34,234 nucleotides of DNA from a virus (Duplodnaviria; Heunggongvirae; Uroviricota; Caudoviricetes), in IMG/VR virus record IMGVR_UViG_2609459856_000009. One strand, given 5' to 3'. This document shows, piece by piece, positions 19,526 through 34,234 of this stretch. The position numbers were made by a program, and so were the translations under genes. A model generated the notes under the pieces. That model saw nothing but the letters and a program-made list of their open reading frames with translations, was not told the origin of the DNA and made no database searches. Positions within the stretch are counted from its first letter, which is position 1. Each line of letters begins with the position of its first letter.

Positions 19526-19724
19526 GAGGTTGCCCCGTATTCAGTGTCGCTGATTTGTATTGTCTGAAGTTGTTTTTACGTTAAGTTGATGCGGATCAAT
19601 TAATACGATACCTGCGTCATAATTGATTATTTGACGTGGTTTGATGGCGTAGATGCACGTTGTGACATGTAGATGATAATTATTATCATTTTGCGGGTCC
19701 TTTCCGGCGATCCGACAGGTTACG

Positions 19725-19736
19725 GGGCGGCGACCT
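19725..19736. other. cosN cohesive-end site (lambda-type 12-nt GGGCGGCGACCT)
   Basis: Exact match to the lambda left-end 12-mer GGGCGGCGACCT, with lambda right-end-like sequence upstream and lambda cosB-like leader downstream up to Nu1. Confidence 0.85.
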
Positions 19737-19913
19737 CGCGGTTTTTCACTATTTATGAAAATTTTCCGGTTTAAGGCGTTTCCGTTCTTCTTCGCCGTAA
19801 CCTAATGTTTTTATTTAAAACACCCCCTGAAAAGAAAGGAAACGACAGGTGCTGAAAACGGGCTTTTTGGCCTCTGTCGTTTCCTTTCTCTGTTTTTGTC
19901 CGTGGAATGAACA

Positions 19914-20433
19914 ATGGAAGTCAACAAAAAGCAGCTGGCTGACATTTTCGGCGCGAGTATCCGTACCATTCAGAACTGGCAGGAGCAGGGAATGCCCGTT
20001 CTGCGGGGTGGTGGCAAGGGTAATGAGGTGCTTTATGACTCTGCCGCCGCCATAAAATGGTATGCCGAAAGGGATGCTGAAATTGAGAACGAAAAGCTGC
20101 GCCGGGAAGTTGAAGAACTGCGGCAGGCCAGCGAGACAGATCTCCAGCCAGGGACTATTGAGTACGAACGCCATCGACTTACGCGTGCGCAGGCCGACGC
20201 ACAGGAGCTGAAAAATGCCAGAGACTCCGCTGAAGTGGTGGAAACTGCATTCTGTACTTTCGTGCTGTCGCGGATCGCAGGTGAAATTGCCAGTATTCTC
20301 GACGGGATCCCCCTGTCGGTGCAGCGGCGTTTTCCGGAACTGGAAAACCGACATGTTGATTTCCTGAAACGGGATATCATCAAAGCCATGAACAAAGCAG
20401 CCGCGCTGGATGAACTGATACCGGGGTTGCTGA

Positions 20434-20459
<26 letters not shown>
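19914..20459 (+). CDS. Nu1: Terminase small subunit Nu1
   Basis: 181-aa product near-identical to lambda Nu1 (MEVNKKQLADIFGASIRTIQNWQEQGMPV...). Confidence 0.95.
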
Positions 20460-24140
<3,681 letters not shown>

Positions 24141-24160
<20 letters not shown>

Positions 24161-25460
24161 TCTCCCGCATATTGCCAGTATGGCCTTTAATGAGCCGCTG
24201 ATGCTTGAACCCGCCTATGCGCGGGTTTTCTTTTGTGCGCTTGCAGGCCAGCTTGGGATCAGCCGCCTGACGGATGCGGTATCCGGCGACAGCCTGACTG
24301 CCGGAGAGGCACCCGCGGCGCTGGCGTTATCCGTTGATGATGACGGACCACGACAGGCCCGCAGTTATCAGGTCATGAACGGCATCGCCGTGCTGCCGGT
24401 GTCCGGCACGCTGGTCAGCCGGACGCGAGCGCTGCAGCCGTATTCGGGGATGACCGGTTACAACGGCATTATCGCCCGTCTGCAACAGGCTGCCAGCGAC
24501 CCGATGGTGGACGGCATTCTGCTCGATATGGATACGCCAGGCGGGATGGTGGCAGGGGCATTTGACTGCGCTGACATCATCGCCCGTGTGCGTGACATAA
24601 AACCGGTATGGGCGCTGGCCAACGACATGAACTGCAGTGCAGGTCAGCTGCTTGCCAGTGCCGCCTCCCGGCGTCTGGTCACGCAGACCGCCCGGACAGG
24701 CTCCATCGGCGTCATGATGGCTCACAGTAATTACGGTGCTGCGCTGGAGAAACAGGGGGTGGAAATCACGCTGATTTACAGCGGCAGCCATAAGGTGGAT
24801 GGCAACCCCTACAGCCATCTTCCGGATGACGTCCGGGAGACACTGCAGTCCCGGATGGATGCAACCCGCCGGATGTTTGCGCAGAAGGTGTCGGCATATA
24901 CCGGCCTGTCCGTGCAGGCTGTTCTGGATACCGAGGCTGCAGTGTACAGCGGTCAGGAGGCCATTGATGCCGGACTGGCTGATGAACTTGTTAACAGCAC
25001 CGATGCGATCACCGTCATGCGTGATGCACTGGATGCACGTAAATCCCGTCTCTCAGGAGGGCGAATGACCAAAGAGACCCAATCAACAACTGTTTCAGCC
25101 ACTGCTTCGCAGGCTGACGTTACTGACGTGATGCCAGCGACGGAGGGCGAAAACGCCAGCGCGGTGCAGCCGGACGTGAACGCGCAGATCACCGCTGCGG
25201 TTGCGGCAGAAAACAGCCGCATTATGGGGATCCTCAACTGTGAGGAGGCTCACGGACGCGAAGAACAGGCCCGCGTGCTGGCTGAACCCCCCGGTATGAC
25301 CGTGGAAACGGCCCGCCGCATTCTGGCCGCAGCACCACAGAGTGCACAGGCGCGCAGTGATACTGCGCTGGATCGTCTGATGCAGGGGGCACCGGCACCG
25401 CTGGCTGCAGGTAACCCGGCATCTGATGCCGTTAACGATTTGCTGAACACACCAGTGTAA
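24141..25460 (+). CDS. C: Head protease / minor capsid protein C
   Basis: GTG start at 24141 overlapping the B end by 20 nt; 1320 nt, the lambda C length; product from MTAELRNLPHIASMAFNEPLMLEPAYARVFF... The 477-aa track ORF is this gene read through from inside B. Confidence 0.9.
24855..25460 (+). CDS. Nu3: Scaffolding protein Nu3 (in-frame internal start within C)
   Basis: ATG at 24855, in frame with C and 714 nt from its start, the same offset as lambda Nu3. Confidence 0.75.
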   Translation: MDATRRMFAQKVSAYTGLSVQAVLDTEAAVYSGQEAIDAGLADELVNSTDAITVMRDALDARKSRLSGGRMTKETQSTTVSATASQADVTDVMPATEGENASAVQPDVNAQITAAVAAENSRIMGILNCEEAHGREEQARVLAEPPGMTVETARRILAAAPQSAQARSDTALDRLMQGAPAPLAAGNPASDAVNDLLNTPV

Positions 25461-25469
25461 GGGATGTTT

Positions 25470-25802
25470 ATGACGAGCAAAGAAACCTTTACCCATTACC
25501 AGCCGCTGGGCAACAGTGACCCGGCTCATACCGCAACCGCGCCCGGCGGATTGAGTGCGAAAGCGCCTGCAATGACCCCGCTGATGCTGGACACCTCCAC
25601 CCGTAAGCTGGTTGCGTGGGATGGCACCACCGACGGTGCTGCCGTTGGCATTCTTGCAGTTGCTGCTGACCAGACCAGCACCACACTGACGTTCTACAAG
25701 TCCGGCACGTTCCGTTATGAGGATGTGCTCTGGCCGGAGGCTGCCAGCGACGAGACGAAAAAACGGACCGCGTTTGCCGGAACGGCAATCAGCATCGTTT
25801 AA
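25470..25802 (+). CDS. D: Head decoration protein D
   Basis: 110-aa product from [27 protein letters not shown]... near-identical to lambda gpD. Confidence 0.93.
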
Positions 25803-25858
25803 CTTTACCCTTCATCACTAAAGGCCGCCTGTGCGGCTTTTTTTACGGGATTTTTTTT

Positions 25859-26134
25859 ATGTCGATGTACACAACCGCCCAGCTGCTGGCGGCAAATGAG
25901 CAGAAATTTAAGTTTGATCCGCTGTTTCTGCGTCTCTTTTTCCGTGAGAGCTATCCCTTCACCACGGAGAAAGTCTATCTCTCACAAATTCCGGGACTGG
26001 TAAACATGGCGCTGTACGTTTCGCCGATTGTTTCCGGTGAGGTTATCCGTTCCCGTGGCGGATCCACCTCTGAATTTACGCCGGGATATGTCAAACCCAA
26101 GCACTTAGCATGGCTTTCTGAGGCTTTCGTGTAG
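25859..26134 (+). pseudogene. E: Major capsid protein E, truncated: only codons 1-82 are lambda-like, then 9 junction-derived codons and a stop
   Basis: Product matches lambda gpE through ...SEFTPGYVKPKH (ending at nt 26104), then diverges (LAWLSEAFV, stop). Lambda E is about 341 aa; the remainder is replaced by the integrase-bearing element. Confidence 0.9.
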
Positions 26135-26266
26135 TTGCTGGTTTTTACACTTAATCTTTTGATAATAAAGAATAAGTTTATCTGGCGCTTTCACTGAATT
26201 TTCCTCGTTATCTGTGTGTTGCAATCATCTCTGTATTGCAGCTTGTATTGCTTTTTGGGGCTAAAA

Positions 26267-27502
26267 ATGGCTGGCGAGAACAAACTGAGCGACAAAGCGC
26301 TTAAAGGATATCTGGGGAAACCCAGAGAAAAGCAGATCACCATTGCTGATGGAAAGGGGCTTTCTATTCGTGTGAGTACTAAAGGGGCTGTGAGCTTTGT
26401 TTTCTTCTACAGGTTAGCAGGTGGCCGGGATGCTCCGGTCTGGCTAACGTTGGGTAAATATCCTGATATGTCACTCAAACAGGCAAGGGAAAAGCGCGAC
26501 GAGTGCCGTGGTTGGTTGGCTGACAAACGTGATCCGCGTATCCAGATTAAGATTCAGGCTGAAGAACGCTTAAAGCCGGTCACAGTGGAGGATGCACTAA
26601 ATTACTGGTATGAAAATTACTGTAAGGTGCGTCGTAAAACTCATGCTGTAACGCTTGGCAGATTTCGAAAGCATATCTTTCCCTATATCGGTCATTTGCC
26701 CGTAAATGACACTCACCTATATGAATGGCTGGACTGTTTTGACCGAATTAAACGTAATGCACCAGTTATGGCGGCGTATGTTTTTTCTGACACTAAATTA
26801 GCTCTTCGTTTTTGTCGGGTACGCCAGTACGCGACGTGTGATGCTTTAAAGGATTTGCGCATGAGTGATGTGGGGCAGATTGCAGGTAAGCGGGATCGGG
26901 TTCTGGATGAAGCCGAACTGGGCCAGCTCTGGAAGGCAATTTTTGTCGAGCCTGATTTAAAACTAATGTCTGAATACACGCGAAAAATGTTTGTGCTTTG
27001 TACAGTATTTGGATGTCGAATGAGTGAAGCCCGATTATCTGAATGGAGCGAATGGGATCTCGAAAGTTGGGTTTGGACTGTACCAAAAGATCACTCAAAA
27101 ACTGGTGTTGAAATCGTCAGACCAGTACCTGAAATTCTACGACAGTGGGTAACGGATGTTCACGAAGAGACAAAACATACTGGTTATGTGCTGGGAAGTC
27201 TGCGAATTAGAGAAAGCGTAAGCAAGATTGGGGGGAAAATCGGTAAACGTTTGGGCCATGAAAAACAATGGTCACTACACGACCTTAGAAGAACGCTATC
27301 TACTCATCTAAGTGATCTCGGTGTTGAATTTTATGTAGTAGAACAACTGTTAGGCCATGCGCTACCTGGCGTGGCAGGTGTTTACAACCGGAGTAAGTTT
27401 ATGGCTAAAAAACTGGATGCTCTGGAACTCTGGACTACATATCTCAATAGCATCGCAGGTGCTGATTCAAAAGTGACAATCCTCAAACAAAAGGCTGGTT
27501 AA
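26267..27502 (+). CDS. int: P4-family tyrosine integrase of the inserted element
   Basis: About 411-aa product from MAGENKLSDKALKGYLGKP... with an N-terminal arm-binding-like region and C-terminal catalytic motifs (HDLRRTLSTHL, LLGHALPGVAGVYNRS). Begins about 160 bp after the E breakpoint. Confidence 0.85.
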   Translation: MAGENKLSDKALKGYLGKPREKQITIADGKGLSIRVSTKGAVSFVFFYRLAGGRDAPVWLTLGKYPDMSLKQAREKRDECRGWLADKRDPRIQIKIQAEERLKPVTVEDALNYWYENYCKVRRKTHAVTLGRFRKHIFPYIGHLPVNDTHLYEWLDCFDRIKRNAPVMAAYVFSDTKLALRFCRVRQYATCDALKDLRMSDVGQIAGKRDRVLDEAELGQLWKAIFVEPDLKLMSEYTRKMFVLCTVFGCRMSEARLSEWSEWDLESWVWTVPKDHSKTGVEIVRPVPEILRQWVTDVHEETKHTGYVLGSLRIRESVSKIGGKIGKRLGHEKQWSLHDLRRTLSTHLSDLGVEFYVVEQLLGHALPGVAGVYNRSKFMAKKLDALELWTTYLNSIAGADSKVTILKQKAG

Positions 27503-27503
27503 C

Positions 27504-27731
27504 ATGAAAAAAATGGCAATTGTTGATAAAAAGGGTCTGGAGTACATTCCTAACATCGATCGTATGATCCGTGAGAAAGAATGTCGGGAGCTAACCACTC
27601 TTGCAAACAGCACACGCTGGAAGCTGGAGAAGGAAGGAAAATTTCCTAAGCGGATCAAGATTGGTTCCACTGCTGTTGCATATCGTCTTTCAGAAGTGCA
27701 GGCATGGATTCGAGGTGAGTGGGTAGTTTAA
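27504..27731 (+). CDS. alpA: AlpA-family transcriptional regulator / excisionase-like protein
   Basis: 75-aa product with an AlpA-type HTH (ELTTLANSTRWKLEKEGKFPKRIKIGSTAVAYRLSEVQAWI), immediately downstream of the integrase. Confidence 0.8.
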   Translation: MKKMAIVDKKGLEYIPNIDRMIREKECRELTTLANSTRWKLEKEGKFPKRIKIGSTAVAYRLSEVQAWIRGEWVV

Positions 27732-27756
27732 ATTATCTCAGAATAAAATATTATGA

Positions 27757-27792
27757 ATTACTGATTTGAGAATTTGTACTCAAATCAGTAAT
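27757..27792. terminator. Bidirectional hairpin between convergent alpA and the membrane-protein gene
   Basis: Perfect 14-bp inverted repeat ATTACTGATTTGAG / CTCAAATCAGTAAT with an 8-nt loop, flanked by T-rich sequence on both strands. Confidence 0.6.
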
Positions 27793-27800
27793 AACATTCT

Positions 27801-28337
27801 TTATAAGAGATTAAATCCAAATAAAGAGTAATCATATACCGGGGTGCATTGCATCCCACTGAATATGCTGATGTTTTTTTCTGTTTCTATCCTTTTTTCA
27901 ATAAGTTGTTGTATATTTTTACAGTACAATTTGTGTGTGATGTTATTATCGTAAGCCTGATATAGCAACGTCAATGTTGACGCTAGGAAACATACAGATA
28001 AAATTAAAATAATATATGCAGTTTTTTTATTTTTTGTCCATGATCTATTTGTTTGTGAAATATAAAGAATTCTGAGGTGGATAATGGTGAGAGACAATAG
28101 CAGGCCACTCAATAAAATAAGTATTGGGTTTGCGTATTTTATTAATGGTTGAGAGCAAAAAACTATTATAGCTCCTGTGACTGCGTATGAGAAAAAGGAG
28201 TGATTAAACTTCTTACTCCTTCTCTCAAGTATTTTAATTTCATCTTGCGTGGGGGTTTTAGATGCCTCTAATATAAGTTTATTGAATTTTTCTGTTATCT
28301 TGTTTTTTGTGTTTGTGGCTATTTTTTTTAGATTCAT
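27801..28337 (-). CDS. Hypothetical AT-rich integral membrane protein (three predicted transmembrane helices), element cargo
   Basis: 178-aa ORF with K/N/I-rich composition, three hydrophobic segments (FFSYAVTGAIIVFCSQPLI; ILILLSGLLLSLTIIHLRILYI; AYIILILSVCFLASTLTLLY) and soluble termini. Strongly AT-rich compared with neighbouring element genes. Confidence 0.6.
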   Translation of the reverse strand: MNLKKIATNTKNKITEKFNKLILEASKTPTQDEIKILERRSKKFNHSFFSYAVTGAIIVFCSQPLIKYANPILILLSGLLLSLTIIHLRILYISQTNRSWTKNKKTAYIILILSVCFLASTLTLLYQAYDNNITHKLYCKNIQQLIEKRIETEKNISIFSGMQCTPVYDYSLFGFNLL

Positions 28338-28687
28338 AGCATTCTAACTCCCTTAACTTATTTATTACTTTCTCTTTATGATAAGAGAGGGGAATGACTT
28401 GGTAAAGTGATTTGTCATTAATAATGATAATCCTTGCGATAAATATTTCTGCAAGTTATTTATCTGTTTGTTGCTATCTTGTTAAGCGTTGGGTGTGGTT
28501 TATGTTTGGAGTGACTTTATTTAATCGTGATTTTATGGATTTATATTTATATCCTGTAAGATAAGCGCATGTTAGTTCAGGAGTAGTGTCAGATAAAATT
28601 ATTCGGAGTAGAACTACCTTTTCTGTTTATTGCCAGTATTTACATAGCAATGCGCCGTAGTTACTCACATCACGGCGCTGATACTAA

Positions 28688-28990
28688 TTATTCAGATTCT
28701 TTGGCTTTACGCCGCTGGAGTTCTTCACGAGCGACGGCTACGAGTTGCCCGATTTCCTCCGCTACCTTGATGCCGATTTGTTCGACCTTAGCTAAGGCAT
28801 CCAGTGAAGACACGAGGGGATTTTCTCCGCTTCCTTCTGCCTGGCGGCGGGCGATCTCACCGCGCATGGCGGTTACTATGAATCCGGCGTTGCTTTCGCC
28901 GTCCAGTTTTACGGATTCCATGCCCTCCATAACATCGTGGGGAACCCTGATCGTTGTCATTTGCGATTTTGCATTTTTGTATACAGACAT
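28688..28990 (-). CDS. Putative ribbon-helix-helix (Arc/CopG-like) DNA-binding regulator
   Basis: 100-aa ORF; the N-terminus (MTTIRVPHDVMEGMESVKLDGESNAGFIVTAMRGEI) has a beta-strand-then-helix pattern typical of RHH repressors; divergent from the operator-repeat array. Confidence 0.5.
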   Translation of the reverse strand: MSVYKNAKSQMTTIRVPHDVMEGMESVKLDGESNAGFIVTAMRGEIARRQAEGSGENPLVSSLDALAKVEQIGIKVAEEIGQLVAVAREELQRRKAKESE

Positions 28991-29010
28991 AGTTAATCAC
29001 CAATTTGTTA

Positions 29011-29111
29011 TGTGTATATCACTATACACAAAAGTGAGATATAAAAACACTTGCAATGTATATCACCACAATATAATGTATATCTCACATTATGGTCGCT
29101 ATGTATCTCAC
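29011..29111. promoter_or_regulatory. Operator-like repeat array in the divergent intergenic region of the element
   Basis: Perfect palindrome TGTGTATA-TCAC-TATACACA (29011-29030) plus further copies of TGTAT(AT)C(T)CAC at 29057-29066, 29077-29088 and 29102-29111, and an inverted copy TGAGATAT (29035-29042). Confidence 0.55.
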
Positions 29112-29198
29112 AATGATCGATTCATAAAAACGACGAAACCCGGCAGTGCGCGAACACTAACCGGGCTTCTAACCAAACCGTTAAACGAGGTAACGACT

Positions 29199-29489
29199 AT
29201 GGCTGGAACACAGCATACCCAAACTCACCCTAAATTTATATACATCTTTCTGGCGCTACATCGCGATCGCATAGCAGATGGAGCAACTACGGTACATGTA
29301 GCCGCTGACACGCTGTTTATTCAGAAATGTGAAAACAATTTCATCTGGCGTTTTATCGCCCTGAGTACGGCACAACCGCGCGTGATTACCATCGAGGCCA
29401 CCAGCGAACAGGAAGCCCGCCAGCAATCCCCAACTGGCTGCGTGATGATATTCGCCGCCCGTATTCGTCAGGAGGTGTGCCATGAATGA
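29199..29489 (+). CDS. Icd-like small protein (P4-type satellite family)
   Basis: 96-aa product from MAGTQHTQTHPKF... with segments (NFIWRFIALS, VITIEA, EARQQSPTGCVMIFAARI) resembling Icd-like proteins of P4-type elements as I recall them; ATG 29199 is in frame inside the 279-aa track ORF. Confidence 0.45.
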   Translation: MAGTQHTQTHPKFIYIFLALHRDRIADGATTVHVAADTLFIQKCENNFIWRFIALSTAQPRVITIEATSEQEARQQSPTGCVMIFAARIRQEVCHE

Positions 29490-29706
29490 TCTTTATTTTA
29501 AAGTGCTGACACATGCTGAAAACGCGCTCGTTTGTGGCAAAAATATGCGAGAAATCTTATCAACCTGGCTTGATGGGACAACAAATGCGGAACACGATGA
29601 ACGGGATGCTAATTTAGCTGGAGCGTTAATTACGTTACTTGATCCTGTCATCAAAGAGCTGGATGAAGCTATAAAAATACACGACCAGAGCTATACCGGA
29701 GAATAA
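29482..29706 (+). CDS. Hypothetical protein
   Basis: 74-aa ORF overlapping the upstream gene end by 8 nt; operon-like packing. Confidence 0.45.
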   Translation: MNDLYFKVLTHAENALVCGKNMREILSTWLDGTTNAEHDERDANLAGALITLLDPVIKELDEAIKIHDQSYTGE

Positions 29707-29708
29707 AA

Positions 29709-29996
29709 ATGAAAAATAAATTTTCTGGCTTTATTGCCAGCGGTCAAACTCATTCAAAAATCAGCCTTGGGGATATTTTCAAAGATAGCTATGGCTATCG
29801 AGTAAAGATTATTTCGGTTGATGATCGCCGTGTCTCTTATTTGCGTGATGGTTATGATTTTGAATGTGTTATGCCGCGTCAGCAGTTCGAAAGAGATTTC
29901 ATTCTGGTAAAAAATTGCAAGACAGATAATCAGAGGCGTTCCGCAGGCTATATCCGCAAAATTCGGGCAATGTTAGTTGCCGGAGGTAACAAATGA
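29709..29996 (+). CDS. Hypothetical protein
   Basis: 95-aa ORF starting 3 nt after the previous stop; its own stop overlaps the primase start. Confidence 0.45.
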   Translation: MKNKFSGFIASGQTHSKISLGDIFKDSYGYRVKIISVDDRRVSYLRDGYDFECVMPRQQFERDFILVKNCKTDNQRRSAGYIRKIRAMLVAGGNK

Positions 29997-31813
29997 AACG
30001 TGCTCCGAACTTAAAATACCAACCGCGCGACAAAATGACAGAAGTCATCATTTTTGCTGGCAGTGATGCCTGGAGCCATGCAAAAGAATGGAATGAATGG
30101 GCGGGTAAGCATATTGCAGCAGATGATACACCACCAGTCATTCTGGGTACGGAACAACTGGAAAACCTGGATGATATGCAAATTATCGATGAAGGCCGTC
30201 ATTATGTGCGTGTTTATCGTGCCGGAAAGATCGCAGAGAAAAATCTGACGAAGGTTGCGACATTACTTGCTATTGCAGGCGTAAAGGAAGCACGTTGTTA
30301 CCGTAGCTTTGTTGATCGAGAGCCTGAAGACTGGACTCCGCGCCTTGTCGGCCTAAAAGCTGAAGCGGAGCATGGGGAAAGTCTGGTGATTGAACTGCCA
30401 GTGAAGAAGGCAGAGCGCAAAAATGACGAGCGTGCTTCATCTTTGGCGTTGAATCAGATGGGGGCCAGCCAGCGCGGTGAAGTTCTCCTGGCACATTACG
30501 GCGGCGAACTGGCAATCAATGCCGACTCTGACACCGTTCATCATTACAACGGCGTTGTATGGGAGCCGGTTCAGGATAAAGAGTTACAGCGTGCTATGGC
30601 GCAGATTTTCATTGATGCGGAGATCAGCTATTCGCAGAACGCCATTAAATCGGCGGTAGATACCATGAAGTTAAGTTTGCCTGTAATGGGGAATACAGCC
30701 CGTAACCTGATTGGATTCAGTAACGGGGTATTTGATACCAGAACTGGTAATTTTCGGGAGCATAACAAAAACGACTGGTTGTTAATTGCCAGTGAATTAC
30801 CTTTCAGCCCACCAGCAGAGGGGGAAACGCTGGCAACACATGCGCCGAATTTCTGGAAGTGGTTGCGCCGTTCGGTGGCTGAGAATGACCGCAAGGCAGA
30901 TCGCGTACTGGCGGCATTATTCATGGTGCTGGCGAACCGGTACGACTGGCAGTTATTCATTGAGGTAACAGGGCCGGGGGGAAGTGGTAAAAGTGTGATG
31001 GCGGAGATTTGCACCATGCTGGCGGGTAAGGCTAATACAGTATCAGCAAGCATGAAGGCGCTGGAAGATGCAAGGGAACGTGCGTTAGTGGTTGGCTTTT
31101 CGCTGATTATCATGCCGGATATGACCCGCTACGCTGGTGATGGGGCAGGGATTAAGGCCATTACAGGCGGTGACAAGGTGGCAATTGACCCGAAACACAA
31201 AGCCCCCTATTCAACGCGTATTCCGGCAGTAGTGCTGGCGATTAACAATAACGCCATGTCATTCAGTGACCGCAGCGGGGGGATCTCACGTCGTCGGGTG
31301 ATATTCAATTTTTCGGAAGTTGTACCGGAGAACGAACGCGATTCGATGCTGGCGGAAAAAATAGAAGGTGAGCTGGCGGTAGTGATTCGCCATCTGCTTA
31401 CACGGTTTGCTGATCAGGACGAAGCCAGACGCCTGTTATATGAGCAGCAGAAATCTGAAGAAGCACTGGCGATAAAGCGAGAGGGGGATTCGCTGGTGGA
31501 CTTCTGCGGCTATCTCATGGCGTCGGTAATGTGTGATGGCCTGTTAGTGGGTAATGCTGAAATTGTGCCATTCAGCCCACGCAGGTATCTCTATCATGCC
31601 TATCTGGCTTATATGAGGGCACATGGGTTTGGTAAACCTGTAACACTGACGCGCTTCGGTAAAGATATGCCGGGGGCAATGGCGGAATATGGCAGGGAGT
31701 ATATGAAACGGAAAACGAAGCACGGTTTGCGTTCAAACGTGACACTGACGGAGGAATCAGAAGACTGGATGCCATCATGTGTATCGGTCACTAATGACGA
31801 TAGCAAAAATTAA
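29993..31813 (+). CDS. Replication primase-helicase (P4-alpha / D5-like C-terminal P-loop NTPase)
   Basis: 606-aa product with Walker A (EVTGPGGSGKS) and downstream helicase-like motifs; followed directly by an iteron array. Confidence 0.82.
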   Translation: MKRAPNLKYQPRDKMTEVIIFAGSDAWSHAKEWNEWAGKHIAADDTPPVILGTEQLENLDDMQIIDEGRHYVRVYRAGKIAEKNLTKVATLLAIAGVKEARCYRSFVDREPEDWTPRLVGLKAEAEHGESLVIELPVKKAERKNDERASSLALNQMGASQRGEVLLAHYGGELAINADSDTVHHYNGVVWEPVQDKELQRAMAQIFIDAEISYSQNAIKSAVDTMKLSLPVMGNTARNLIGFSNGVFDTRTGNFREHNKNDWLLIASELPFSPPAEGETLATHAPNFWKWLRRSVAENDRKADRVLAALFMVLANRYDWQLFIEVTGPGGSGKSVMAEICTMLAGKANTVSASMKALEDARERALVVGFSLIIMPDMTRYAGDGAGIKAITGGDKVAIDPKHKAPYSTRIPAVVLAINNNAMSFSDRSGGISRRRVIFNFSEVVPENERDSMLAEKIEGELAVVIRHLLTRFADQDEARRLLYEQQKSEEALAIKREGDSLVDFCGYLMASVMCDGLLVGNAEIVPFSPRRYLYHAYLAYMRAHGFGKPVTLTRFGKDMPGAMAEYGREYMKRKTKHGLRSNVTLTEESEDWMPSCVSVTNDDSKN

Positions 31814-31826
31814 ACTTATGGAATAA

Positions 31827-32056
31827 CTGTTCACCACTGTTCACCCTGTCATAAATATCTTTTATATCAGTATATTATAGGGTGAACAGTTATTTATGAA
31901 CTGTTCACCAAACTATTCACTGTTCACCTTTTTGATTGTTTATTGAGCTTCAAGGGTGAACAGTGGTGAACAGTTGGTGAATAGTTTTTGTGAAACTGTT
32001 CACCCATTAACATTATGAATTAAAAGAGAAAATATCAAAAGGTGAACAGGTGAAGG
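31827..32056. repeat. Iteron array, candidate origin of replication of the element
   Basis: About ten copies of the 9-mer CTGTTCACC or its complement GGTGAACAG in both orientations, several as tandem pairs, interspersed with AT-rich sequence, immediately downstream of the primase-helicase. Confidence 0.75.
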
Positions 32057-32100
32057 GTTAAAACGCAAAAATTTTAATTTACTGCTGTGAGATAAAGCCT

Positions 32101-32346
32101 ATGACAGCGAAGCACACAAAAAAATCACAATCGCACGCCCTTGATTTGACGGAACACTGGTTAAGGGTGTCGATAAAAATCATCGACCGCAACGCCGGGG
32201 AAGGATACGCGAAAGCACATCCCGAACTGATTAGCGCATTCATGACAACGGCGGCTGCAAACTTTGCCACTCTGACCGAACGGGAGATTGCTGAAGCGGA
32301 GGAAGTGACAACAATCAATATTAAGTCCGGAGAGCAGGCAGCATGA
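32101..32346 (+). CDS. Hypothetical protein
   Basis: 81-aa ORF whose stop overlaps the SSB-like gene start. Confidence 0.45.
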   Translation: MTAKHTKKSQSHALDLTEHWLRVSIKIIDRNAGEGYAKAHPELISAFMTTAAANFATLTEREIAEAEEVTTINIKSGEQAA

Positions 32347-32792
32347 CGGCGCAAATATCAGTTTACGGGCGGTTGGTGGACGACCCGCAGACAAAACAGA
32401 CCAGCAAGGGCACCCCCATGACGCTGGCGCGTATGGCGTTATCACTGCCCTGCAGTCAGTCGGATGACGGTCAGGCGACGATGTGGTTATCTGTCCTGGC
32501 GTTTGGCAGACAAGCCGACGCGCTGGCAAAGCATCACAAAGGCGAACTCCTGAGCGTGGCGGGTAATATGCAGGTGAGCCAGTGGACTGGACAGAACGGT
32601 GAAACGCGGCAGGGCTGGCAGGTTATCGCAGACAGCGTAATCAGTGCGCGAACGGTGCGACCGGGCGGCAAAAAAGGTCAACAGGGTCAGGCTACTGACG
32701 CACTGAACAGAGCAAAACAACAGGCAGATCAGCAAGGAAGCCATCCACCAGTGGGAGATAATGAACAATGGGGAGATGATATTCCGTTTTAA
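32343..32792 (+). CDS. ssb: Single-stranded DNA-binding protein (SSB-like, OB fold with acidic C-terminal tip)
   Basis: 149-aa product with SSB-like OB-fold segments, a Gly/Gln-rich tail and the hallmark C-terminus ...WGDDIPF. Confidence 0.8.
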   Translation: MTAQISVYGRLVDDPQTKQTSKGTPMTLARMALSLPCSQSDDGQATMWLSVLAFGRQADALAKHHKGELLSVAGNMQVSQWTGQNGETRQGWQVIADSVISARTVRPGGKKGQQGQATDALNRAKQQADQQGSHPPVGDNEQWGDDIPF

Positions 32793-32810
32793 ATATTGCC
32801 AATAAAAAAG

Positions 32811-32835
32811 GCCGGAAAAAAATAAATTTTCCGGC
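32811..32835. terminator. Hairpin or terminator after ssb
   Basis: GCCGGAAAA-aaataaa-TTTTCCGGC perfect 9-bp stem flanked by A/T runs. Confidence 0.5.
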
Positions 32836-33009
32836 ATGCTACATAAATCCCGACCAAAGGGAGTGAAGATATTAACACTAATTATCCGCGCTGAAGTTGT
32901 TATCCCAAAACTTTATACAACATTGCACTCGGTTGCATGTATTCGCATGACAAATATCGGTGATAGCATATATCCACAATTATTTTTAATGAATGCAAAG
33001 AGGATGCGT

Positions 33010-34234
<1,225 letters not shown>

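Follow-up and report, generated by a model that had tools for sequence, protein, structure and literature searches.

Predicted two-layer control of the replication operon, by a repressor and an antisense RNA, in a helper-embedded phage-inducible chromosomal island

What keeps the replication genes of an integrated phage satellite silent until its induction? This question is raised by a divergent gene pair in a 34,234-nt sequence assigned to the Caudoviricetes (IMG/VR record IMGVR_UViG_2609459856_000009; this whole stretch is referred to below as the window), which contains the helper-embedded phage-inducible chromosomal island (PICI) 11capE. On the minus strand, a 100-aa regulator of the YlcI/YnfO family is encoded at 28688–28990. 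It faces the first cistron of a plus-strand operon, an Icd-like gene (29199–29489; NCBIfam NF033153, E = 2.8e−22), which is followed at 29482–31813 by a 74-aa open reading frame (ORF), a DUF4222 protein gene, and a D5/P4-type primase-helicase gene, each stop codon overlapping the next start codon or lying 3 nt from it. This arrangement, a 100-aa minus-strand ORF opposite a gene chain (29199–31813) leading to the primase-helicase, is just as an earlier sequence-only reading of the locus had described it. That reading further proposed that a ribbon-helix-helix (RHH) protein acts on an array of operator repeats between the two genes. From the analyses described here, we consider it likely that the module is a two-layer quiescence control, of the immunity type, of a Gram-negative PICI.

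The repeat array can be read directly in the sequence. The perfect palindrome reported previously, TGTGTATA-TCAC-TATACACA, is present at 29011–29030 with 8-nt arms and a 4-nt spacer, and TGTATATCAC occurs twice (29013–29022 and 29057–29066), accompanied by TGTATATCTCAC at 29077–29088, TATGTATCTCAC at 29100–29111, and an inverted copy, GTGAGATATA, at 29034–29043. The stretch 29012–29111 holds five copies of a TGTATATC(T)CAC-type motif approximately 22 bp apart (21–23 bp from centre to centre), and a repeat search of the region returned the direct family D1 and the inverted pairs I4, I7, and I11. When the whole window was scanned with TGTATATCNCAC, allowing up to two mismatches, 17 matches were found against 7.6 expected; seven of them fell within 29011–29113, as did every match with no or one mismatch, and within the window the copy at 29077–29088 alone matched the motif exactly. 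The 135-nt stretch 28991–29125 was also examined de novo against 300 dinucleotide shuffles. Neither the five copies of a 9-mer (≤1 mismatch) nor the six copies of a 10-mer (≤2 mismatches) were reached in any shuffle, and the five copies of an 8-mer were reached in 11 of the 300, indicating that the A+T-rich composition accounts for part of the repeat signal. The array is real and non-random, and the further direct and inverted copies that had been claimed within 100 bp are borne out by direct reading, the repeat search, the scan, and the shuffles.

The related loci show that this array is a recurrent feature. We compared 26 loci from at least 10 genera (Escherichia, Enterobacter, Klebsiella, Yersinia, Edwardsiella, Serratia, Erwinia, Xenorhabdus, Photorhabdus, Phytobacter, and others), collected from one-genome-per-species contigs and by exact-protein look-ups, and added the PICI EcCICFT073 and an island of E. 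coli Nissle 1917. In nearly all loci examined, int or alpA precedes a regulator gene that faces an Icd-like gene, followed by DUF4222 and a primase or helicase gene. Every locus carries four or five short repeats upstream of the regulator gene, at approximately −30, −53, −75, −98, and sometimes −121 from its ATG. The sequence of the repeats varies between loci in step with the N-terminal arm and the predicted beta-strand (residues 11–14) of the regulator, and eight classes can be distinguished. Regulators of the same class are accompanied by the same motif across genera, and unlike classes have unlike motifs at equal positions; within a class, the sites and the promoter hexamers stay conserved and the spacers between them diverge across genera.

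The classes are as follows, each given with its regulator N-terminus and repeat. Class A (NKNAKSQLTTVRVP; GTGTGTTTC) was found in Xenorhabdus, Photorhabdus, E. coli, and Serratia, and class B (KSQSLTARIP; GTGTAAG../..CTTACAC) in Enterobacter, E. coli, and Klebsiella. Class C (KSQ(L/V/I)KN(I/V)RIP; GTGTGTATTTA) comprises loci L007, L011, and L024; class D (RSQMKNIRFP; GTGTGC(A/T)ACAG, CTGACACAC, and GTGTACACAC) L018 and L019; class E (KSQQ(I/L)NARFP; GG(G/T)ATTCA) L012, L020, and L021; class F (KSKQISIRIP; GTGATT(T/C) and GAATCAC) L014; and class H (KSQALAARVP; TGTAAACA and TGTTTACA) L025. The window belongs to class G (YKNAKSQMTT(I/V)R(V/I)P; GTGAGATA(TA)CA), which occurs in E. coli and Enterobacter ludwigii. 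When the motif was predicted from the regulator N-terminus alone for three loci, Yersinia L033 (class G), Edwardsiella L034 (class B), and Serratia L035 (class C-like), it was correct in all three and was found at the predicted positions. A further copy, ATGTATAT at 29238–29245, was considered as a sixth operator and rejected, since nearly the same sequence (GTATATAAATTTAGGGTGAG) occurs in L014 and L018, which are elements of other classes.

The window can also be compared with its near-identical sister element L014, which is inserted at the same site in the capsid gene and is 97–99% identical over approximately 6 kb. The alignment of the two, which includes a 93%-identical stretch over the antisense RNA region described below (29163–29318), is missing only at about 28943–29163 (approximately 220 bp), that is, at regulator codons 1–16 and the operator region. 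Judged from the two sequences, this difference is a cassette swap in the style of an immunity region. The motif tracks the regulator and not the replication protein: class B is found with an AAA_25 protein in L016 and with a D5_N protein in L017, and the same D5_N primase is combined with a class G regulator in the window and with a class F one in L014.

The repeats also coincide with predicted promoter elements. For the rightward promoter into the Icd-like-to-primase operon, the predicted −35 box (TTGCAA, 29051–29056, plus strand) lies at a conserved position, at which nearly all loci examined have TTGACA, TTGACG, TTGCAA, or TTGAAA (TTAACG in L004). The predicted −10 box (TAATGT, 29074–29079, plus strand) follows after a 17-nt spacer; in most homologous loci, a TAnnnT hexamer (TAACAT, TAAAGT, TAATAT, or TATTGT, read by hand) is found 17 nt past the −35 box. 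An alternative −10 box, a perfect TATAAT, lies at 29072–29077 with a 15-nt spacer. For the regulator gene, a −10 box (TATAGT, preceded by TGTG) is predicted from the consensus at 29021–29026 on the minus strand, and most specificity classes retain TGTGTATA(A/C/G/T)T there, irrespective of their operator sequence. We infer the geometry of both promoters from this cross-locus conservation.

Against these elements, the five candidate operator sites can be placed as follows. S5 (29012–29022, GTGATATACAC on the minus strand) is at −32 from the regulator ATG, with equivalents at −28 to −32 in all classes, and overlaps the −10 box and the predicted +1 of the regulator's own promoter. S4 (29034–29043, the inverted copy GTGAGATATA on the plus strand, position −51) is kept in the class G elements of Enterobacter (L028) and Yersinia (L033), and S4 and S5 together bracket the regulator −10 box. 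S3 (TGTATATCAC, 29057–29066, position −76) abuts the rightward −35 box within the promoter spacer; S2 (TGTATATCTCAC, 29077–29088, position −98) lies over the −10 box and the predicted +1 of the same promoter; and S1 (TATGTATCTCAC, 29100–29111, position −121), found in all three class G elements (E. coli, Enterobacter, and Yersinia), falls early in the transcribed leader. No promoter other than the one covered by these sites is recognisable upstream of the operon. Because the repeats have conserved positions, covary with the DNA-reading residues of the regulator, and are exchanged with it as a joint cassette, they are very likely the binding sites (operators) of the RHH repressor, as the sequence-only reading had proposed; the overlap with both promoters adds in-silico support. 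The palindrome, which exists as described, is composite in this light. Its right arm, TATACACA (TGTGTATA on the minus strand), belongs to the −10 region of the regulator, TGTGTATAnT, so that only the left arm is a class-specific site, and the whole is the conserved −10 region juxtaposed to S5. A different palindrome, CCTTG-N6-8-CAAGG, is conserved in class A and class B elements and in CFT073 (L002–L010, L005, L016, L026, and CFT073). It lies where the predicted sense leader begins, with the antisense terminator on one side and the distal operator on the other; class G has its fifth site, S1, there instead. This palindrome could be a leader hairpin or the site of another protein.

What kind of protein, then, is the regulator? 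Its residues 8–49 match profile positions 1–42 of NCBIfam NF041551, the YlcI/YnfO N-terminal domain, with 70.7 bits and an E value of 7.4e−20 (cut-off, 30), which places it in that family, and the identical RefSeq protein WP_014640129.1 is named "YlcI/YnfO family protein." The layout consists of an N-terminal RHH domain at approximately residues 8–53 and a conserved C-terminal helical domain at residues 58–99. In an AF2 model, the N-terminal domain has a strand-helix-helix topology and can be superposed on solved RHH domains; the model computed from the single sequence was poor (pLDDT 63). In an alignment of 33 homologues, R15 and P17 are invariant and match the R-x-P that ends the Arc/Mnt strand, and residues 11–14 and the N-terminal arm are hypervariable, with the remainder of the protein conserved. 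With moderate confidence, the N-terminal ~50 residues adopt the RHH fold, so that the RHH-like N-terminus seen in the sequence-only reading holds at the level of the model. Sequence comparison did not reach any curated RHH family or solved RHH protein at a significant level: no Pfam RHH family matched the whole regulator or either half up to an E value of 10, no RHH protein was among the matches of sequence and profile searches of the PDB, a Foldseek search of the PDB found nothing, and the hhalign probabilities were non-significant (3% for Arc and 0.4% for Mnt). A tblastn search of 50,697 phage genomes gave no match, and the regulator looks satellite- or island-specific, not phage-borne, on that account.

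The C-terminal domain (28691–28816) is conserved in all specificity classes, with L59, S62, L63, L66, I72, and G73 invariant, and is lacking in the EcCICFT073 regulator. Residues 45–86 match the helix-hairpin-helix domain of Hef weakly (E = 0.0087; pattern L..VE.IG.K.AEEI), and AF2 draws the domain as a single long helix despite its invariant glycine. The domain could serve in tetramerisation, backbone binding, or inducer sensing. An assignment of the RHH protein as a type II antitoxin was rejected, as no conserved partner gene lies downstream: a 178-aa membrane protein is encoded there in the window, a 57–84-aa ORF in L016, L018, L021, and CFT073, and none in L022. This small ORF, which has a FALE(D/Q)F motif and begins 58 nt past the regulator gene (L016, L018, L021 from 3364 onward, and CFT073 at NC_004431 1380242–1380415), is absent here.

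A second layer of control is predicted at the start of the Icd-like gene, where a cis-antisense RNA of approximately 80 nt, similar to SymR, would be transcribed from the minus strand (29204 to ~29125). A permissive Rfam search of 1.5 kb (28300–29800) matched SymR (RF01809) over its full length at 29132–29204 on the minus strand with 33.6 bits (E = 3.8e−4), and the window gave no match at Rfam gathering thresholds. The RNA has two domains: a 5′ hairpin domain at 29204–29171, the loop of which carries CCUC (29190–29187) complementary to the Shine-Dalgarno (SD) sequence GAGG of the Icd-like gene (29187–29190), and a 3′ part with a G+C-rich terminator hairpin (29169–29135) followed by a U-rich tail (29134–29125). 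A U-rich tail after a G+C-rich hairpin is found on the minus strand only. The RNA is fully complementary to the SD sequence and the start codon (29199–29201), and its 5′ end at 29204 lies 3 nt beyond the ATG. Folding of the 83-nt RNA gave a minimum free energy of −31 kcal/mol (z = −4.36). In an alignment of 21 sequences (20 loci and SymR), 95% of the cells were paired and 15 of the 22 pairs had compensatory changes; for all five covariation measures, none of 500 shuffles reached the observed value, and in slid-alignment controls the paired cells dropped to 33–47%.

A promoter for this RNA is predicted within the first 14 codons of the Icd-like gene (29212–29240, minus strand), with a −10 box TATGCT at 29217–29212, a 17-nt spacer, and a −35 box TATAAA at 29240–29235. 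In most of 22 loci, a −10 box (TATGCT, TAGACT, TATGAT, TAGTAT, TACTAT, or TACGAT) lies about 7 nt before the modelled 5′ end, and where the Icd-like gene has a MAGTQ-type start, the promoter DNA hardly changes between E. coli and Xenorhabdus, unlike the rest of the gene, which diverges. A covariance model built without SymR (model R1) detected the RNA in every related locus tested with 63–87 bits (EcCICFT073, 64.6 bits). With filters off, its best match in the 4-kb K-12 locus was the annotated symR (27.4 bits, E = 4e−6), over the full length and with the same 5′ end; with default filters, SymR was not detected in 164 kb, and nothing was found in P4. The predicted RNA has the features of a cis-antisense regulator, namely, a 5′ end just inside the target ORF, coverage of the ATG and SD sequence, and two hairpin domains supported by covariation, and its target is an Icd-like protein (NF033153), not of the SymE type. 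Taken together, the predicted RNA is SymR-like, probably a distant relative and not a member by Rfam's own criterion. C4/CI-type immunity RNAs (RF01695, RF01394, and RF03163) were considered as a candidate and discarded: none was found in the window at gathering thresholds or up to an E value of 5 in 28300–29800, and P4, as the positive control, gave C4 with 74.9 bits and isrK with 60.8 bits. The repressor-controlled switch of the sequence-only reading is supported in silico as regards the repressor–operator layer, but the analysis does not support its expectation that a helper phage signal would derepress the element through this protein; that reading missed the antisense RNA layer, whose promoter at 29212–29240 lies outside its coordinates, and also the replication origin with its different iterons at 31820–32055.

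From the sequence anatomy, the conservation and covariation, the predicted fold, and the RNA covariation, we infer that the regulator binds DNA and acts as a repressor and that the RNA is transcribed and influences translation and replication, as follows. Dimers of the 100-aa YlcI/YnfO RHH repressor would occupy the five 10–12-bp sites, which at a spacing of ~22 bp, roughly two helical turns, would all lie on the same face of the DNA. Binding to S3, S2, and S1, on the spacer, the −10/+1 region, and the early leader, would repress the rightward promoter of the Icd-like-to-primase operon, and binding to S4 and S5 around the leftward −10 box would make the regulator autoregulatory. The ~80-nt RNA would start from the promoter within the first Icd-like codons and end at its own terminator, and its anti-SD sequence in the hairpin loop, together with its complementarity to the SD sequence and ATG, would prevent the first cistron from being translated. 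By coupling and polarity, expression of the downstream replication genes as far as the primase would be lowered as well. The replication operon would thereby be under a double lock, with the repressor on the core promoter and the antisense RNA on the translation start. The N-terminal arm and beta-strand of the regulator and the operator set evolve and are exchanged as one cassette, giving rise to the at least eight mutually distinct specificity classes.

Several observations weigh against this two-layer control. A generic promoter scan called neither the rightward nor the leftward promoter, the leftward promoter has no recognisable −35 box, and the SymR score of 33.6 bits falls far short of the gathering score, 61. 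Between classes A and G, the main differences in the protein are Leu/Met 11, which is predicted to face the DNA, and the N-terminal arm, but the two motifs are considerably unlike each other, and the orientation of the sites in class G (+,+,+,−,+) departs from that in other classes (+,−,+,−). In addition, over-expression of AlpA alone induces EcCICFT073, which implies that the repressor is either not dominant or bypassed; the demonstrated trigger of Gram-negative PICIs is the helper-induced expression of this activator (PMC6092414). With a small but appreciable probability, the repressor–operator layer alone is real and the hairpins at 29135–29204 act in the sense leader, for example on the stability or translation of the Icd-like mRNA, or as a terminator insulating the regulator gene, with no discrete antisense RNA being made. 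The stems are symmetric, so that covariation alone cannot assign the strand, the antisense −35 box is weak, and the promoter scan called no antisense promoter. Speaking for the minus strand, on the other hand, are the 66 G-U cells of the alignment, for which pairing is 95.0% on the minus strand versus 81.9% on the plus strand, the one-sided U-rich tail, the TAnnnT hexamer that most of the 22 loci have ~7 nt ahead of the 5′ end, the preservation of the promoter DNA within diverging coding sequence, and the reciprocal detection with SymR at the same 5′-end geometry.

It is also conceivable, at a low probability, that the antisense RNA and the Icd-like gene form an addiction or abortive module resembling a type I toxin–antitoxin system, the form in which SymR/SymE was originally presented, with the RHH protein as a mere local autoregulator and AlpA alone as the switch for replication and induction. 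Icd-family proteins are annotated as cell-division inhibitors, SymR/SymE joins an antisense RNA and the repressor LexA to keep a harmful protein off (PMC1891008), and the sufficiency of AlpA for EcCICFT073 induction would fit such a division of labour. However, the Icd-like gene is the first of an operon whose stop and start codons overlap into the primase gene, so that the replication genes would hardly be left untouched, and the sites sit on the only recognisable promoter upstream of that operon. A partition or replication role of the repeats, as iterons or as a centromere-like site bound by the primase-helicase or by an RHH protein of the ParG/omega type, is highly improbable. ParG and omega do bind arrays of short direct and inverted repeats, and satellites replicate as episomes once induced; nevertheless, a separate, typical PICI origin with unrelated iterons follows the primase gene, the motif covaries with the regulator and not with the type of replication protein, no listed locus has a gene for a ParA/ParF-type ATPase, and the sites coincide with −35/−10 elements. 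Since the origin is elsewhere and the motif is independent of the primase type, the repeats were rejected as origin iterons. The double lock of a repressor and an antisense RNA is the reading that we retain.

Close functional parallels are found in plasmid copy-number control, in which pMV158 employs the RHH repressor CopG and antisense RNA II, and R1 employs CopB and CopA. In both, a repressor acts on the promoter of the replication operon and a short, constitutive, terminator-bearing antisense RNA blocks translation of a leader cistron, with coupled replication genes downstream. By analogy, a small repressor, a short antisense RNA with its own terminator, and coupled replication genes appear to be combined here too. 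In contrast, the regulator here is divergent and would autoregulate from a separate promoter instead of being the first operon gene, and the element is an integrated satellite whose replication is fully off until induction, not a steady-state plasmid. To our knowledge, there is no detectable sequence homology between the module and either plasmid system. The regulator itself recalls Arc and Mnt of P22 immI in the R-x-P that closes the beta-strand (where hhalign pairs KSQMTTIRVPHDV with KMPQFNLRWPREV) and in operators that overlap divergent promoters, and its extra C-terminal helical domain recalls the tetramerisation domain of Mnt. The sequence similarity is not significant, however; five sites ~22 bp apart replace two half-sites one helical turn apart, and the target is a replication operon instead of an antirepressor gene.

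For the RNA, a close counterpart is SymR/SymE of E. coli K-12 (RF01809), which shares the two-domain structure, the exposed anti-SD sequence, and a promoter within the first codons of the target. Both RNAs begin 3 nt within the ORF of their target (SymR at L031 2336 with the symE ATG at 2339–2341; here 29204 with the ATG at 29199–29201), the target is also under a transcriptional repressor, and detection by covariance models is reciprocal. The differences are the score (33.6 against 61 bits), the target, which is an Icd-like gene heading a replication operon and not the AbrB-fold SymE, and the repressor, which is an element-encoded RHH protein and not LexA. The immunity systems of P1 (immI, c4-icd-ant) and P4 (CI) likewise direct an RNA against the ribosome-binding region of a first cistron that is Icd-like, so that the genes downstream are blocked with it, and the Icd-like N-terminus here resembles residues 75–97 of the P4 "cI" ORF. 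Their RNA, by contrast, is of the C4 type, processed from the same transcript and acting on seqA/a′b′ targets; P4 has strong C4 and isrK matches in Rfam whereas the window has none, and the P4 annotation has no YlcI/YnfO homologue. PHROGs labels the Icd-like family (29199–29489) "transcriptional repressor," apparently inherited from the annotation of the P4 "cI" ORF (NC_001609 8168–8584). Because P4 immunity is carried by the CI/C4 RNA (PMC10111431), which Rfam finds inside this ORF, the label is probably a mis-annotation. As with the Stl/Rpr master repressors of Gram-positive PICIs (SaPIs), the repressor gene is divergent from the excision/replication module and lies on the int side, at a candidate point of quiescence; the fold is unrelated, as Stl is a large helix-turn-helix protein, and for Stl derepression by helper proteins has been demonstrated, the trigger demonstrated in Gram-negative PICIs being AlpA.

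Positions 28400–29800 of the window are 100% identical, and 19668–33848 are 98.5% identical, to E. coli O83:H1 NRG857c, in which the region lies in an island of ~11 kb inserted within the major capsid gene of a lambdoid prophage. This island is described in the literature under the name Eco567.11capE as the founding helper-embedded PICI, with excision demonstrated upon mitomycin C treatment (PMC10111431). It has the hallmarks of a Gram-negative PICI, with int (26267–27502), alpA (27504–27731), and the primase gene in this order, an iteron-flanked origin, a size of ~11 kb, and insertion in a late prophage gene. Consistent with the published layout of Eco567.11capE (PMC10111431), the lambda-gpE-type major capsid gene of the host prophage is cut by the satellite after 91 codons (25859–26134 and 26216–27502, on the attL side), and the satellite carries its own divergent capsid gene from 32836 onward. 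The identity with NRG857c stops at 33848, and an ORF for an IS3-family transposase (33857–34216, minus strand) interrupts the satellite capsid gene, which is intact in NRG857c; the window thus stems from a related strain with a disrupted satellite capsid gene. At the distal end of the satellite in NRG857c (L001 15901–17617), a HEPN-domain gene stands beside a DUF262 gene, and this pair is probably anti-phage defence cargo.

Downstream of the primase-helicase gene, the plus strand holds the origin, a small ORF, a gene for a single-stranded DNA-binding protein, and the capsid gene that belongs to the island itself. The iterons CTGTTCACC/GGTGAACAG are present at 31820–32055 in at least 12 copies, in two sets around an A+T-rich core, an arrangement that matches the origin layout of Gram-negative PICIs (PMC6092414). 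Judged by this arrangement, the replication origin is at 31820–32055, with iterons unrelated to the operator motif. On the other side of the module, a low-G+C gene for the 178-aa membrane protein (27801–28337, minus strand) lies 350 bp downstream of the regulator gene. A hairpin with a 14-bp stem and a T-poor tail (27757–27792) separates this gene from the convergent alpA, and such a strong hairpin just after alpA makes read-through from alpA into the regulator and operon doubtful in this element. Another hairpin, GCGCCGT...ACGGCGC, at 28654–28680, just past the regulator stop codon, is conserved in L014, L016, L018, L020, L021, and CFT073 and has no U-tract on either strand.

The module is not restricted to this island. 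The model island EcCICFT073 carries a 59-aa YlcI/YnfO protein consisting of the RHH domain only, GTGTGGCCCAC repeats, the same −35/−10 boxes, and the predicted antisense RNA (equivalent positions in NC_004431, about 1380772–1380852, minus strand), and the module is also present in the E. coli Nissle 1917 island. In these islands, the three small genes have out-of-series RefSeq locus tags (C_RS30120, C_RS30125, and C_RS30800), which suggests a later addition to the annotation; this may be the reason that they escaped notice. Parts of the 1.4-kb region match 867 of 5,426 complete E. coli genomes. The island itself and the protein family, named without characterisation, were already known, and the kinds of mechanism, an RHH repressor–operator switch and a cis-antisense block of translation, are well known. 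The literature searched yielded no account, for PICIs, of this regulator and its operators, of the specificity classes, or of the antisense RNA. PMC10111431 contains none of the words YlcI, operator, antisense, and SymR, and a 2026 survey lists "YlcI/YnfO, prophage-associated protein" merely as an accessory gene of capsid-forming PICIs.

Gram-negative PICIs and their capsid-forming and helper-embedded relatives are widespread, and how they are silenced is a stated gap in PICI biology. The module offers a concrete candidate, with a repressor, mapped candidate operators, natural specificity-swap variants as ready controls, and a predicted antisense RNA. It would extend the SymR type of cis-antisense RNA to the replication control of mobile elements and would mark the Icd-like translation start as a recurrent regulatory target with two RNA solutions, the C4 type in P1 and P4 and the SymR-like type here. 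More tentatively, the YlcI/YnfO RHH protein and the SymR-like RNA may constitute the missing quiescence or immunity system of Gram-negative PICIs at large, including EcCICFT073. If this is true, the at least eight cassette-swapped classes would correspond to immunity or incompatibility groups of satellites, through which several PICIs could share a cell, and the double lock would be overridden by AlpA or by a helper factor that acts on the conserved C-terminal domain.

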